From a virus (lineage: Duplodnaviria > Heunggongvirae > Uroviricota > Caudoviricetes): DNA of 6,168 nt. The notes below the pieces were generated by a model. It did no database searches. It saw only the letters and a list, made by a program, of their open reading frames with translations, and was not told the DNA's origin. Position numbers and translations under genes: made by a program. Where the stretch lies: the IMG/VR virus record IMGVR_UViG_2778261506_000004; one strand, given 5' to 3'. The first letter of the stretch is position 1; every line of letters begins with the position of its first letter. Positions 103 through 6,168 of the stretch are shown here, piece after piece.

Positions 103-309
103 AAACCGGAAATAACGCCAGAAATGGTGGAAAAAATAGCCTAAATAGGCTGATTCGATGTGTTTGCGGGAAAAAAATCGGCCCAGATCCGCGAAATTTT
201 AATCAACGAGTCAGCTTGGGAAGAAATGACCTGCTTATTCGCACCTTCCTTAGCTCTTTAACAATCTGGTCCCCATCAACAAGTAACTGATAACTTGAGG
301 AGGTGTGAA

Positions 310-516
310 ATGCACAAAACAGAACCCAAAATCGTCGCGCCCGGATACACAAATGAGGAAATTTACGAGTGGATGGCAAAGAAGCTGGCAGCTATAAACC
401 AGCTTCGTGAAGTGCTGTCTTATCGACAGGAAACAATAGACTCCTTAAAAAAACTGGATCAGGAAATCACGGTTTTATCACAGGATGTTACTTTAGATAT
501 TGTGCAGACAAATTAG
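310..516 (+). CDS. Small hypothetical phage protein, 68 aa, predicted helical/coiled-coil (MHKTEPKIVAPGYTNEEIYEWMAKKLAAINQLREV...)
   Basis: ATG at 310 is preceded by a strong Shine-Dalgarno GAGGAGG (297-303) at 6-nt spacing. The ORF track start at 295 is a TTG with no RBS. Stop TAG at 514-516. No family recognised. Confidence 0.55.
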   Translation: MHKTEPKIVAPGYTNEEIYEWMAKKLAAINQLREVLSYRQETIDSLKKLDQEITVLSQDVTLDIVQTN

Positions 517-922
517 GATCCCATTCATTTTCGTCAAAATCATCAAAGTGATGAATTTGTGATCTCCAGTCTCGATAATCTAAAAATTTCTGGGCGGTTA
601 CGCTTATTTTATCAAGTGTGAGTTCATCCTGAATTGAAAGAAGAAGTTCATCAAATTTCATCTCATTAATCTGTTTTGGCATCCAGTGATGCTTCATCAG
701 AATAAGGTGAACCAGAGCCTTTTTCCCATTCAACTGATTATAGGGAGTGCCGAATTTCTTCCGGTGCTCATGTAAGACAAGATCCAGAAGAGTAAGTAAT
801 GTTGCCCTTGATTCCACTTTGCTTATTTCGACTGATGACACTACCCCACTGATTTCAATGCCCCGATACTTTCCAACATTTTCACAGTGGGATTTGTACA
901 ACGTGTAGATATTACCGGACAT
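488..922 (-). CDS. Hypothetical protein, 144 aa, encoded antisense to the surrounding + strand operon; candidate lysogeny-expressed moron or exclusion gene
   Basis: ATG (complement of 920-922) is preceded on the minus strand by AAGGA at about 7-nt spacing; stop is the complement of 488-490. Its 3' end overlaps the 310..516 gene convergently by 29 bp. Near the C-terminus the string RDWRSQIHH gives an R-x6-H spacing that is loosely HEPN-like; this is weak and unverified. Confidence 0.55.
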   Translation of the reverse strand: MSGNIYTLYKSHCENVGKYRGIEISGVVSSVEISKVESRATLLTLLDLVLHEHRKKFGTPYNQLNGKKALVHLILMKHHWMPKQINEMKFDELLLSIQDELTLDKISVTAQKFLDYRDWRSQIHHFDDFDENEWDPNLSAQYLK

Positions 923-937
923 TTCTTTTCCTTTTGC

Positions 938-989
938 GTTGTTGGGGATAACCAGATTAACCGAATCCTTGTTGTTGGGGAATAACCAG
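938..989. repeat. Tandem imperfect direct repeat: GTTGTTGGGGATAACCAG (938-955) and GTTGTTGGGGAATAACCAG (971-989), about 33 bp centre to centre
   Basis: Read directly from the sequence; the two copies differ by one inserted A. They lie 16 to 70 bp upstream of the minus-strand gene start, i.e. in its promoter or leader region. On the minus strand each copy contains TTATCCCCA / TTATTCCCC, a partial resemblance to a DnaA-box TTATNCACA. Confidence 0.6.
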
Positions 990-1206
990 GTCCACCTCGC
1001 CTGATGTGGCTAAAAGCAGGCACATAACAGCTAAGTATTTTCAACCAGAGAGAATCCTTAGCGTTGTGGTGAATGCTGCTCAGCGCACGCGGGTTAAGGT
1101 TGAGGCTGACAGTCGACCTTCTGTGGATACCCACCCGCCTGGTGTGCAACCTTCGCCAGGCACCGGGAGGCACCCGGCACCACAACTTTATGCTGTGTGT
1201 AGTCTT

Positions 1207-1253
1207 GGCGGTACCAGCTTGTACCCTTGCTTCCGGCTGGTACCGTCCTTTTT
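1207..1253 (+). terminator. Candidate intrinsic terminator or attenuator hairpin: 10-bp perfect stem CGGTACCAGC (1209-1218) / GCTGGTACCG (1236-1245), 17-nt loop, followed by a T5 run (1249-1253)
   Basis: Perfect inverted repeat followed by TCCTTTTT on the + strand only; the minus strand has no T-run after the hairpin. It sits about 140 nt upstream of the 1391 start codon inside a GC-rich region with no ORF. The loop is longer than in a typical terminator. Confidence 0.4.
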
Positions 1254-1390
1254 ACAAAACAGAGAAGAGCATCACCGGACGACGGGCTCATAACTCAATC
1301 CATCCGGGCGGCTGCCACCGCAGGTGTTCTTCTCTGTTTTGTGGAGAAACTAATCGGCCTTGCAGGGTCGATATGATGAGGAGCAGCAAA

Positions 1391-3609: not shown

Positions 3610-4717
3610 AAATAATGTTTCAGTCCCGAACTTGTATCCGCTTTATAGTAGAAAAGTAAATAAAGTCTATTGGCGATATAAACATCCTGTGACCGGGAAG
3701 TTTCATTCTTTAGGCACAAACGAAGCTGAAGCCATTGCTATTGCCACTGAGGCAAATTCACGCCTGGCTGAGCAAAGAACCCGGCAGATTATGGCTATCA
3801 GTGACAGGATCGCAACCAGCAAAGGAAAAGCAATCACAACGTCAACCTGGTTAGATCGCTATCAAGCAATCCAGGATGACAGACTGGAAAGTGGCGATAT
3901 AAAGCTAAACACCTATAAACAGAAAGCCAAACCAGTATCCTTGCTCAGGGAACGAGCAGGAATGAAATTAATTTCATCAGTTGATGTAAGGGATATAGCA
4001 CAATTACTTGACGAGTATATCACTGCCGGGCAACCGAGGATGGCGCAAGTAGTCCGCTCCGTTCTAATTGATGTATTCAAGGAGGCACAACACTATGGGG
4101 AAGTCCCTCCGGGCTATAATCCAGCACTGGCAACCAAACAACCCAGAAGAAAAATTACCCGACAACGGTTAAGTCTTGAAGAATGGCAAAAAATCTTTGA
4201 TATCGCAGATGCACGCCATCGTTATATGGGGAATGCCATGCTGTTAGCACTGGTTACCGGCCAACGGTTAGGTGATATCTCACGTATGAAATTTAGCGAT
4301 ATTTGGGATGATCATCTTCACGTCATCCAAGAAAAAACCGGGAGCAAAATCGCCATCCCGCTTTCCCTTCGCCTCAATGCAATTAACTGGAGTTTACGCG
4401 ATGTAGTAGCCCGCTGCCGTGACTATGCAGTCAGCCCATACCTTGTACATTTTTTTCGTACTACTTCACAGGCTGAACGTGGCGCGCAAGTAAAAGCCAA
4501 TACATTGACGATGAATTTCAGTAAAGCGAGGGATTTAGCAGGCATTGACTGGGGTGAAGGTTCGCCCGCCACATTCCATGAACAAAGATCTTTATCTGAG
4601 CGACTTTACGAAGCTCAGGGCGTCGACACCCAAAAACTTCTGGGACATAAATCGCCTAACCAGACAGCTAAATACCATGATGATCGTGGTAAGGAATGGG
4701 CAAAAATCAAGGTTTGA
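3590..4717 (+). CDS. int: Site-specific tyrosine recombinase, phage lambda Int family integrase, 375 aa
   Basis: N-terminal arm-binding region resembles lambda Int (...VPNLY...VTGKFHSLG...). The C-terminal catalytic domain has the lambda-like motifs VTGQRLGD (Arg), PATFHEQRSLSERLY (His-x-x-Arg), LLGHKS (His) and AKYHDDRGKEW (Tyr nucleophile). AAGGA RBS lies 9 nt upstream. Confidence 0.95.
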   Translation: MAARPRKNNVSVPNLYPLYSRKVNKVYWRYKHPVTGKFHSLGTNEAEAIAIATEANSRLAEQRTRQIMAISDRIATSKGKAITTSTWLDRYQAIQDDRLESGDIKLNTYKQKAKPVSLLRERAGMKLISSVDVRDIAQLLDEYITAGQPRMAQVVRSVLIDVFKEAQHYGEVPPGYNPALATKQPRRKITRQRLSLEEWQKIFDIADARHRYMGNAMLLALVTGQRLGDISRMKFSDIWDDHLHVIQEKTGSKIAIPLSLRLNAINWSLRDVVARCRDYAVSPYLVHFFRTTSQAERGAQVKANTLTMNFSKARDLAGIDWGEGSPATFHEQRSLSERLYEAQGVDTQKLLGHKSPNQTAKYHDDRGKEWAKIKV

Positions 4718-4832: not shown

Positions 4833-5729
4833 ATGCAGTTGTATGCCTTACGTGTGTTAATGAGACCGCGCGATCCAGACCTCTTTTCGAAAGGAGCTGT
4901 TCAGAAAGATATCTCTCATTTTGAAAATGCTATGGTTGTCGCTGCAAAAAATTTACACATGACGTCATCAACACCTTCCGTTCATAAGAAAACTAGTTAC
5001 ACCCTGAAATTGAGCATAAAACCTACTGATGGTGTTATGGCTGGAGTCATATCAAAGCTGCAAAAGATTAAAGGACATGATAAAGACTTTCGAGAGTACG
5101 ATGTAGACAACTATCCACCTATCGTATGGATTTGGGACAAAGTAGAGCAGGTGTTACTGGTTGAGAGGAAAACCGCTGTTTTCAAGGATGCGCAACAAGT
5201 TGCTAAAGCATTCGAAGATCTAGCCAATAACGACTATTTGGCTCAGTTAGGACTTAGAATATTTATAGAGCCTTGTCTTGAAATGGAAGATTTTTGGTCA
5301 GAATACCATAGGCTTCAATTTATCGACAAAGTCAGCTTTACGCTGATTACTCCGAATATCTTCGGAAGCAGTAAGCAAGCGTTAACCAATGATTTACGGA
5401 AGCTTGAAAAAGATACCAATGCAAATACTGTGACCACTATTTTTGAAAACAAAGATGGCAATTTGAAACTCAAAGGTTCTCATTGGGCTGAGACTCTTGT
5501 TGACTGGGTCAAAGATGGTGGCGGGTCATGGTTGATTAAAGGACGTAAGACACTCAAGTCAAAATCTACTACGGTATCCAGTAATCAGACAGCCAAAATC
5601 GTGCTGATCGAAGGTGAGATATCAGAAATTGAACTTGATGGCTACTCAGCAAATGATATTAAAGAGATCATAGCATTACATCAAAACAGGTATACGTTCA
5701 AAAATGCAAAATCTAACTGTCTGGATTAA
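4833..5729 (+). CDS. Hypothetical soluble protein, 298 aa, no recognisable family; first gene of a two-gene operon
   Basis: ATG at 4833 is preceded by AGGAG (4821-4825) at 7-nt spacing. Long ORF in a visibly AT-richer region than the upstream phage genes. No Walker A, HD, HEPN or other motif was recognised by eye. Confidence 0.8.
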   Translation: MQLYALRVLMRPRDPDLFSKGAVQKDISHFENAMVVAAKNLHMTSSTPSVHKKTSYTLKLSIKPTDGVMAGVISKLQKIKGHDKDFREYDVDNYPPIVWIWDKVEQVLLVERKTAVFKDAQQVAKAFEDLANNDYLAQLGLRIFIEPCLEMEDFWSEYHRLQFIDKVSFTLITPNIFGSSKQALTNDLRKLEKDTNANTVTTIFENKDGNLKLKGSHWAETLVDWVKDGGGSWLIKGRKTLKSKSTTVSSNQTAKIVLIEGEISEIELDGYSANDIKEIIALHQNRYTFKNAKSNCLD

Positions 5730-6168
5730 AGCTATAGCTACCTTCTTTTTGTGCTTAGCATTAGCATCGACTGATAAAACCATTTATACCTTACTTGAGC
5801 AGGCTTCTGCTGGAGTAATAGGTTCAATACTTGGAGGTATTGCCGCAGGTATCTCCGTTATCTTCGGAATTTTGGCTGTCATTAATAAGGGCGAGAAAAG
5901 CACAGACTTTACGGACTATTTAGATAGTTTAGAATTAGATTTGAAATTACTGGTCATGTGTCTGGCAGTAACAATCTTCCTTCCCTATTTACGTAATTAT
6001 GACATACCACTAGTAAATTATCCTCAGCACGAATTTATCCCTTCTAAAGGCAAGCTATTTACTGCTTTAGAACTTTTTGCTATCGTGCTATCTCTTAACC
6101 TCATTGCAGAAGTGATTAGCTGCATGATTTTAGTGGTTAAAAAAAGTTTCAAAATTGAATCAAAGTGA
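5704..6168 (+). CDS. Small integral membrane protein, 154 aa, about four predicted transmembrane helices including a Gly-zipper-like helix (GSILGGIAAGISVIFG)
   Basis: ATG 5704 overlaps the upstream gene by 26 nt in another frame, suggesting translational coupling; its own RBS is weak. Hydrophobic stretches at roughly aa 7-22, 36-60, 80-96 and 118-145. Stop TGA at 6166-6168 is the last codon of the window. Confidence 0.7.
   Translation: MQNLTVWIKAIATFFLCLALASTDKTIYTLLEQASAGVIGSILGGIAAGISVIFGILAVINKGEKSTDFTDYLDSLELDLKLLVMCLAVTIFLPYLRNYDIPLVNYPQHEFIPSKGKLFTALELFAIVLSLNLIAEVISCMILVVKKSFKIESK

Follow-up and report, generated by a model that had tools for sequence, protein, structure and literature searches.

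Genomic context of the repeats

The window, by which we mean the whole stretch of 6,168 nucleotides analysed here, matches E. coli 268.2 (NZ_CP059947) at 100% identity and Shigella phage SfIV at 99%. It represents the early-left arm of a lambdoid prophage of the e14/SfV/SfIV type that is integrated beside icd, and it contains the following genes and leader:

1-102: 3' end of ymfK, a cI-like repressor gene
310-516, plus strand: ORF of 68 aa
488-922, minus strand: gene of 144 aa in the sieB position (the cargo gene), ECs1072 family
1033-1256: STnc100-like structured leader (Rfam score 41.9 bits, threshold 47)
beyond the module described below and the leader, plus strand: yfdP, yfdQ (DUF2303), yfdR, xis and int, with int ending at 4717

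The only matches of the 144-aa protein are to the ECs1072 family and phrog_5286; no SieB domain was found in it, and it gave zero matches to Pfam or PADLOC. The replication genes are located ~3-4 kb away, across the immunity region.

Two direct repeats abut the cargo gene. Copy 1, GTTGTTGGGGATAACCAG (938-955), begins 15 nt upstream of the minus-strand ORF, whose start is at 922, and copy 2, GTTGTTGGGGAATAACCAG (971-989), differs from it solely by a single inserted A; the distance from start to start is 33 bp. Reading of the sequence therefore bore out the preliminary description of tandem, near-perfect 18/19-bp repeats ~33 bp apart beside the 144-aa gene. No exact repeat between stretches lying within 60 nt of each other is longer, anywhere in the window, than the 11-mer common to both copies. 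A local repeat of at least this length was obtained in 40 of 500 mononucleotide shuffles (8%), and the composite repeat (11-mer, 1-nt indel and 7-mer) is expected ~1e-5 times per window. The commonest variant of the repeat among the loci described below is GGATATCC.

With up to three mismatches allowed, chance would yield the 18-mer 0.01 times in the window. A search for further copies at this tolerance, as had been proposed, found none in the whole 41-kb prophage; one diverged, inverted copy of the motif is present at 263-283. With two direct copies only and no array of at least three repeats in the 41-kb prophage, the suggestion that the repeats are iterons for a replication initiator was rejected. 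The suggested DnaA box had some foundation, as TTATCCCCA (951-943, minus strand) is indeed one mismatch from TTATNCACA, but such near-matches are common (12 in the window versus 6.7 expected) and TTAT is lost in the commonest variant, so that this candidate was also discarded. Neither of two further suggestions held: the repeats lack the TTGC-N6-TTGC form of a CII-like activator site and differ from it in motif and in their 33-bp spacing (in P22 the C1 site is annotated at PRE, away from the sieB segment), and, as integrase arm-type sites, they would lie 3.7 kb from the end of int, near which no copies were found. CI/Cro operators were likewise considered and rejected. Those of this phage are TGTAC-N7-GTACA palindromes in the cI-cro intergenic region, none of them near the repeats, and the conserved module that contains the repeats is common to phages with unrelated repressors (LexA-family YmfK, XRE-family, lambda CI and P22 C2).

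Homology to the sieB region of lambda and P22

Using sensitive BLAST, the 95-bp module containing the repeats matched lambda positions 34394-34464 with 76.4% identity over 71 nt (E = 2e-3), in the same orientation. The match is placed immediately upstream of sieB, between orf28/ral and sieB. Lambda sieB is encoded on the strand opposite the pL operon, which is the geometry found in the window, and the gene order of the window (cI, minus-strand 144-aa gene, module, plus-strand yfdPQR-xis-int) follows the lambda/P22 layout. Lambda and P22 each have two copies of CTGTAGGGGT, 34 bp apart, upstream of sieB, and the 3' block CCACC..GCCTGA.GTGG..AAAAG.CAGGCAC is common to the module, lambda and P22. 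Intermediate variants bridge the clade of the window and the lambda/P22 clade. By sequence comparison, the repeats are parts of a ~95-bp cassette homologous to the sieB promoter/sas region of lambda and P22.

Ranade and Poteete (J Bacteriol 1993) reportedly used RNase protection to map the P22 sieB start and recognised the lambda PsieB from its homology to P22. The lambda record has no promoter or RNA annotation at 34394-34464, and TAAACT is found between its repeats. The P22 record (NC_002371) places the sieB promoter at 29690-29720, with TAAACT as its last six bases, and the start of the sieB RNA at 29727, which is the A before CCCCTACAG, 7 nt after the -10. With this annotation transferred to the window by alignment, the elements of the module are:

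938 to ~1028: whole conserved module (repeats, -10, SL2 and 3' element), homologous to the lambda/P22 sieB upstream region and sas
938-955: repeat copy 1; its minus-strand complement, CCCCAACAAC, would open the cargo mRNA, and its plus strand is the 3' arm of a long-range complementarity described below
947-949, minus strand: predicted cargo mRNA start, transferred by P22 alignment and falling near 947, at the first C in the complement of copy 1, with a 5' UTR of ~25 nt to the ATG at 922
954-959, minus strand: predicted -10 hexamer TAATCT of a PsieB-like promoter, between the repeats and aligned with the P22 TAAACT
971-989: repeat copy 2, overlying the minus-strand -35 position and forming the core of the plus-strand hairpin SL2
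977-982, minus strand: putative -35-position hexamer TTCCCC, 17 nt upstream of the -10 and inside copy 2 (3/6 matches to consensus)

In each of the 17 variants compared, a TAnnnT hexamer occupied this offset (TAATCT, TAAACT, TATTAT, TATAAT or TAAAAT), and the spacing of the repeats was 32-35 bp across variants. A consensus sigma-70 scan of 923-1033 returned no promoter, the -10 TAATCT matching consensus at 3/6 positions, and by-eye searches for hexamers on both strands were unconvincing before the P22 annotation set the register. A sigma-54 reading of TGGC-N9-GGC was rejected, as this spacing is not kept among variants. The P22 alignment and the conserved -10-like hexamer lead us to assign the repeats to the promoter region of the antisense gene. 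The proposal that they are regulator sites at this promoter was right in its placement and is backed by their conservation and functional look, but the direct-repeat-recognising protein that it invoked is not supported.

Distribution and variation of the module

A motif scan of IMG/VR identified 120 loci. Across them, a block of ~95 bp, composed of GTTGTTGGGGATATCCAG, ATTAACCGAATCCTT, GTTGTTGGGGAATAACCAG and GTCCACCTCGCCTGATGTGGCTAAAAGCAGGCACA in this order, is near-invariant. Identity within the module is 95-100%, and the flanks differ at either side: the minus-strand gene abutting copy 1 is variable, as is the sequence past CAGGCACA. Breakpoints of homology between prophages fall at 938, 952, 992 and ~1030. 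The STnc100-like leader (RF02076), whose match at 41.9 bits is below the gathering threshold of 47, does not include the repeats and is not a constant partner, the module also being found with quite different downstream leaders. A small minus-strand ORF across the module (22 codons, 1025-957) was dismissed as not coding, since a 1-nt indel between variants breaks its frame.

The module is present in 1,114 of 5,426 complete E. coli genomes, about a fifth, and is annotated in none of them. Among the strains carrying it are CFT073 (NC_004431.1:3060617-3060695) and APEC O78. It is also found in sequences from Klebsiella, Salmonella, Hafnia, Cronobacter and Buttiauxella. A 15-mer scan of genome contigs gave 120 matches, nearly all by chance, those in E. 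coli and Buttiauxella alone being real. Rfam has no family for the module or for P22 sas.

The preliminary description had regarded absence of the repeats from otherwise homologous prophages as evidence against its reading, and on this point the result is mixed. SfV, e14 and ST64B are without the repeats, L004-type prophages keep copy 2 and are missing copy 1, and a Providencia phage is without copy 2. On the other side, ~1,100 E. coli genomes have kept the repeats, and diverged versions occur in lambda, P22 and phages of Klebsiella, Hafnia and Salmonella. The core of the repeat, in both copies, is TGTTGGGG here, TGTAGGGG in lambda and P22, and CTGTGGAA in Hafnia phage Meifeng; that is, both copies change in concert between phage clades. 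Whatever reads the motif reads both copies. The most economical reading is RNA pairing, in which copy 2 keeps its complementarity to the beginning of the mRNA, encoded by copy 1.

A predicted structured RNA on the plus strand

In P22, the sas antisense RNA is 127 nt long according to a 2026 RNA-seq paper (PMC13397905). The P22 sieB promoter and sas go back to Ranade and Poteete 1993 (cited via PMC13397905 and PMC12197685), and reviews describe sas as switching sieB translation. The sas sequence maps exactly to P22 29636-29762 and covers both repeats on its way from shortly beyond the start codon of sieB to the 3' hairpin. Window positions 916-1024 are 70% identical to P22 sas over 116 aligned columns, and both repeats fall inside this alignment. 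The elements predicted on the plus strand are:

967-990, plus strand: hairpin SL2, CCUUGUUGUU-GGGG-AAUAACCAGG, with its loop at 977-980
992-1021, plus strand: invariant 3' element, in which GCCUG (999-1003) pairs with CAGGC (1017-1021), predicted in all variants
992-995 with 1006-1009, plus strand: possible crossing stem in the 3' element, CCAC with GUGG

Covariation in SL2 was measured in an alignment of 23 sequences. The proportion of cells paired was 86.8%, compared with 31-51% when the partner was slid, and both sides had changed in five of the ten pairs. Compensatory changes included A-U to U-A, U-A to C-G and C-G to U-A; next to the loop, for instance, U-A here corresponds to A-U in lambda and P22, and Salmonella phage F1055 provides a case of U-A versus C-G. 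G.U pairs are frequent, and it is only on the plus strand that they fit. Folding predicted SL2 in 10 out of 10 variants, at -7 to -10.6 kcal/mol. Copy 2 is shown by these alignments to belong to a covarying hairpin, predicted on the plus strand, with few independent events behind the covariation and two main clades.

The pairs of the 3' element are invariant, and covariation is therefore uninformative about them either way. A lambda-type nut (boxA/boxB) reading of the 3' hairpin was rejected, as there is no boxA there. A hairpin of copy 1 (SL1) is possible in the window at -4.7 kcal/mol and was inconsistent across the folded variants. The energy of the whole-module fold on the plus strand was not significant by itself, and the minus-strand RNA over the module was less structured than shuffled sequences (z = +2.2); SL2 and the 3' hairpin were the only structures to recur. 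No convincing plus-strand promoter for a discrete sas-like RNA was found beside copy 1 or in the window; the plus-strand RNA may here exist only within the early-left transcript.

A boxA and a long-range complementary arm

The diverged, inverted copy of the motif adjoins a further element of the early-left transcript:

253-264, plus strand: perfect rrn-type boxA, GCTCTTTAACAA (12/12 match)
263-283, plus strand: left arm AATCTGGTCCCCATCAACAAG, the inverted and diverged third copy of the motif, directly after boxA and complementary to 938-958

The rrn boxA-spacer has been given as ugcucuuuaacaauuua (PMC2724277), and GCUCUUUAACAAU in the window is identical to it. In relatives, the cI terminator is followed by pL with CI-type operators, a structured leader, a hairpin and then boxA, and this order places boxA within a nutL-like site of the early-left transcript. 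A perfect boxA is found 550-900 nt upstream in 85 of the 101 loci bearing copy 2, while SfV and e14 have neither boxA nor repeats.

The right arm (938-958) comprises copy 1 plus CCAGAUU (CCAGATT in DNA) and lies ~680 nt downstream of the left arm. The duplex predicted for the window, at -23.9 kcal/mol, contains a 3-nt bulge and a mismatch; in 13 cassette classes, with the arms separated by 513-817 bp, the predicted duplexes range from -22 to -29 kcal/mol. The arms covary by class (ATATCC; ATGACT; GTAACCCTC/GAGGGTTAC; CTGAAT/ATTCAG; CTT.../...AAG). In a fixed-register alignment, 83.6% of cells were paired versus 23-48% when slid, 10 of 18 pairs had changed on both sides and 0 of 500 shuffles reached the observed score, counts that are inflated by a register derived from the same sequences. 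Differences between arms gave G.U pairs 14 times on the plus strand versus 3 times on the minus strand. No inverted arm was found near nutL in lambda or P22. In this clade, copy 1 and a boxA-adjacent arm are shown to be complementary and to covary, and they are predicted to pair; inverted repeats acting as DNA would look alike except for the G.U bias.

A probable portable two-stranded cassette

The explanation that we favour, and regard as probable, is that the repeats are built-in parts of a portable two-stranded lambdoid cassette, the counterpart of PsieB plus sas. On the minus strand, a sigma-70-type promoter would drive any gene in the 'sieB slot', here the 144-aa ECs1072-family gene, and transcription from the C-run of copy 1 would give each cargo mRNA the same beginning, CCCCAACAAC. 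Read on the plus strand, the way the early-left operon runs, this DNA would specify a structured RNA, with the GGGG hairpin of copy 2 followed by the 3' hairpin, and copy 1 would be antisense to the beginning of the cargo transcript. Once leftward transcription sets in, at infection or induction, this RNA would pair with the cargo mRNA leader and alter or stop its translation, by analogy with P22 sas, leaving the phage unharmed by the gene that its own lysogen expresses; a sas mutant of P22 is self-excluding. For this prophage we infer where transcription starts, that a plus-strand RNA is made, where it ends and how it acts on the cargo, and likewise that in the lysogen the 144-aa gene is transcribed from the cassette.

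In both P22 and the window, the slot is on the strand opposite the early-left operon, in homologous sequence; two direct repeats 33-34 bp apart occupy the -35 and +1 positions, which in the window are predicted ones, with a -10-like hexamer between them and the same 3' block beyond; and copy 2 forms a predicted hairpin with a GGGG loop. The repeat unit, however, is 18/19 nt with core TGTTGGGG here and ~10-12 nt with core TGTAGGGG in P22, the cargo belongs to the ECs1072 family instead of SieB/Esc, and the interval from the immunity region to the slot contains, in the window and unlike in P22, neither an N gene nor a lambda-type nutL. The inverted arm beside an rrn-type boxA is present in the window and absent from both P22 and lambda.

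Some observations weigh against the cassette. Neither copy is indispensable, judging from the losses in L004-type prophages, the Providencia phage, SfV and e14, and the lambda match is weak by itself (E = 2e-3). The empty sigma-70 scan with its poor -35 and -10, the failure to find a convincing plus-strand promoter, the inconsistent hairpin of copy 1 and the few events behind the SL2 covariation count on the same side. Moreover, the cargo is not SieB and is without a known esc-like internal start; therefore, the 'translation switch' of P22 is not literally transferable.

The pairing envisaged has a mechanistic parallel in IS10, where the 5' end of the RNA-IN mRNA pairs with the hairpin loop of the antisense RNA-OUT. 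The resemblance is of mechanism only, with no sequence relation: the cargo mRNA would begin with CCCC..., which could pair with copy 1 and with the 5' arm and GGGG loop of SL2.

Alternative explanations

Pairing of 263-283 with 938-958 would loop out a region of ~680 nt antisense to the cargo genes, much like the boxA/boxC leader and processing stem of rRNA, and the resulting helix might serve RNase III as a site or an antitermination complex tethered at boxA as a folding device. That such a long-range RNA helix is the primary function of the repeats is conceivable, although we doubt it; it would complement the cassette and not exclude it. The perfect boxA, in the window as in most loci bearing copy 2, its joint absence with the repeats from SfV and e14, the class-wise covariation of the arms, their strong predicted duplexes and the plus-strand G.U bias all argue for a helix. 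Against this, the pairing counts are inflated by an alignment register of our own choosing, inverted repeats in DNA would give the same picture save for the G.U bias, and the duplex in the window is interrupted by its bulge and mismatch. Copy 2 is left unexplained by the helix, and, as lambda and P22 have the direct repeats without an inverted arm, it gives no general account of the repeat pair.

In rRNA operons, boxC takes part in the 16S processing stem, and a chaperone model describes the rrn antitermination complex. The window resembles the rRNA operon leader in having a boxA and then a strand with its complement several hundred nucleotides downstream; it differs in its phage early-left context and in the looped-out segment, which is antisense to prophage cargo and not rRNA. 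A more ambitious proposal, which we consider unlikely, would combine these features: the early-left operon of this clade would mimic rRNA operons, with a boxA, a long-range helix bracketing a swappable cargo slot, and a copy 2 hairpin that neutralises the cargo mRNA. During induction or infection, the helix would form in the transcript tethered at boxA, which would thereby present the GGGG hairpin and might be cut by RNase III. The invariant 5' leader would be a handle common to all cargo mRNAs, and the slot would hold opposite-strand genes expressed in the lysogen, probably for exclusion or defence. The motif classes (TGTTGGGG, TGTAGGGG and CTGTGGAA) would then be specificity groups, deciding which incoming phages can switch off the resident exclusion gene in trans, in the manner of P22 sas.

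Two explanations at the level of DNA were also weighed. If the repeats, perhaps together with the inverted third copy, bound a phage or host regulator of the cargo promoter, their positions at -35 and +1 on the same helix face and the kept spacing of 33-35 bp would be accounted for, and concerted change of the copies is what a co-evolving cognate protein would produce. No protein co-varies with the motif, though: repressors, cargo and neighbouring genes differ among phages having the same motif, a host factor would not explain three motif classes in E. coli and Salmonella phages, the CI/Cro operators are a different palindrome, and the compensatory and G.U changes in SL2 point to RNA. We judge a protein operator very improbable. 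A recombination linker, or terminal inverted repeats by which cargo cassettes are swapped or inverted, with the direct repeat left over from a promoter unit once duplicated in tandem (33 bp), seems to us distinctly improbable as well. It would fit the exact placing of the homology breakpoints (938, 952, 992 and ~1030), the cassette classes with matching ends (for example, AATCTGG joined to ATGACT on both sides) and the resemblance of the sequence upstream of copy 2 to the -10 unit upstream of copy 1 (GGTGGACCTGGTTATT versus GGTTAATCTGGTTAT), as well as the extended -10-like TGgTATnnT in the upstream unit of SfV, e14 and phiES15. Yet no recombinase or invertase is tied to the module, cargo in the opposite orientation was not seen, and mosaic junctions are expected at any conserved functional cassette. 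The near-invariant SL2 and 3' element, the conserved -10, the G.U bias and the P22 transcripts indicate a function beyond homology, and it is the two-stranded cassette that we retain.

Significance of the cassette

The part of this picture already known is the PsieB/sas cassette of P22. New are the spread of the cassette and its independence of the cargo, the covariation of the hairpin, the concerted change of the two copies and the covarying arm linked to boxA. A boxA-linked helix would be a rare phage case of long-range RNA organisation in the style of rRNA operons. The module marks a conserved slot for diverse, lysogen-expressed prophage genes with candidate roles in exclusion or defence. 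If the RNA reading is true, the cassette gives any gene in this slot a promoter, a common mRNA leader and an antisense 'off switch', which would explain how temperate phages escape harm from their own exclusion genes.

Start of early-left transcription

The following features of the window bear on the transcripts and cargo considered here.

138–151, minus strand: hairpin AGCCTAAATAGGCT, then a T-run
253–264, plus strand: perfect rrn-type boxA GCTCTTTAACAA, 5′ of the 68-aa ORF
1033–1256: structured element resembling STnc100 (41.9 bits, short of the gathering threshold of 47)
1254–1278 and 1318–1342: arms of a second long hairpin
4833–6168: ORFs of 298 aa and 154 aa (the latter with predicted membrane character), 3′ of int

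In SfV, e14 and the L004-type prophages, the cI terminator is directly followed by a clear pL whose operators are of CI type (ACTTGACAATGTACCCATGAGATACATAATGTACCC); the L004-type prophages are the group that keeps only copy 2 of the direct repeat. The sequence after the cI terminator in the window and SfIV is unrelated to that of these relatives, the join falling at about TTAGCTCTTT, and comparison of window 103–249 with three related loci (L004 750–930, L007 825–990 and L006 690–860) revealed no operator-bearing pL in the window or SfIV. In locus L002, the cI–cro intergenic region (18915–18985) contains the palindromes TGTACCTCCGGTGTACA and TGTACCTTAACGGTACA, which are probably the operators for CI and Cro in this immunity type.

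The hairpin at 138–151 is terminator-like for the cargo transcript on the minus strand; on the plus strand it could possibly act downstream of cI as a weak terminator. The boxA indicates that the early-left transcript contains a nutL-like site; no N gene is recognisable in the phage carrying it.

Cargo and its boundaries

The 68-aa ORF (plus strand) and the 144-aa ORF (minus strand) are convergent and overlap by 29 nt (488–516), an arrangement like that of ymfJ and ymfI in e14. The two convergent cargo genes are bracketed by arms at 263–283 and 938–958, whose inverted complementarity covaries by class. L004-type prophages carry AATCTGG|ATGACT at both junctions of the bracketed cargo.

Pfam, PHROGs, NCBIfam and PADLOC gave no match for the 298-aa and 154-aa ORFs. 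In E. coli 268.2 they are flanked by int on one side and by a truncated integrase and icd on the other, so these ORFs possibly represent cargo at the prophage att end.

Putative promoter variants in relatives

Inspection of four repeat-less loci (L007 at ~1490–1510, L006, L005 and L256; junction at window 992), representing SfV, e14 and phiES15, revealed an extended −10-like TGgTAT(A/C/G)(C/T)T directly after GGTGG on the cargo strand. This motif points to a possible alternative promoter, located one 'unit' upstream of that predicted for the window. Providencia phage PSTCR7lys (L257, ~640–700) has a single-copy form of the cassette: on the cargo strand a consensus TATAAT precedes CCCCTACAG by 6 nt, and the unit is joined directly to the 3′ hairpin block.

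Organization of the early-left leader

The 5′ part of the STnc100-like element, GAATCCTTAGCGTTGTGGTGAATG (1052–1075), is similar to GAATCCTTGTTGTTGGGGAATAAC (963–986) and possibly represents the copy 2 unit once more, in degenerate form. At the end of the element stands a strong terminator hairpin (about 1207–1250). This hairpin and the second long hairpin are 81% conserved between window 1192–1350 and the related locus L027 (7735–7890), while the intervening ~530-nt leader of L027 is unrelated to that of the window; the early-left leader therefore consists of conserved ends and a swappable middle. Termination-mediated immunity was reportedly described in SfV by Roberts and colleagues in 2007, and it may map to this part of the leader.
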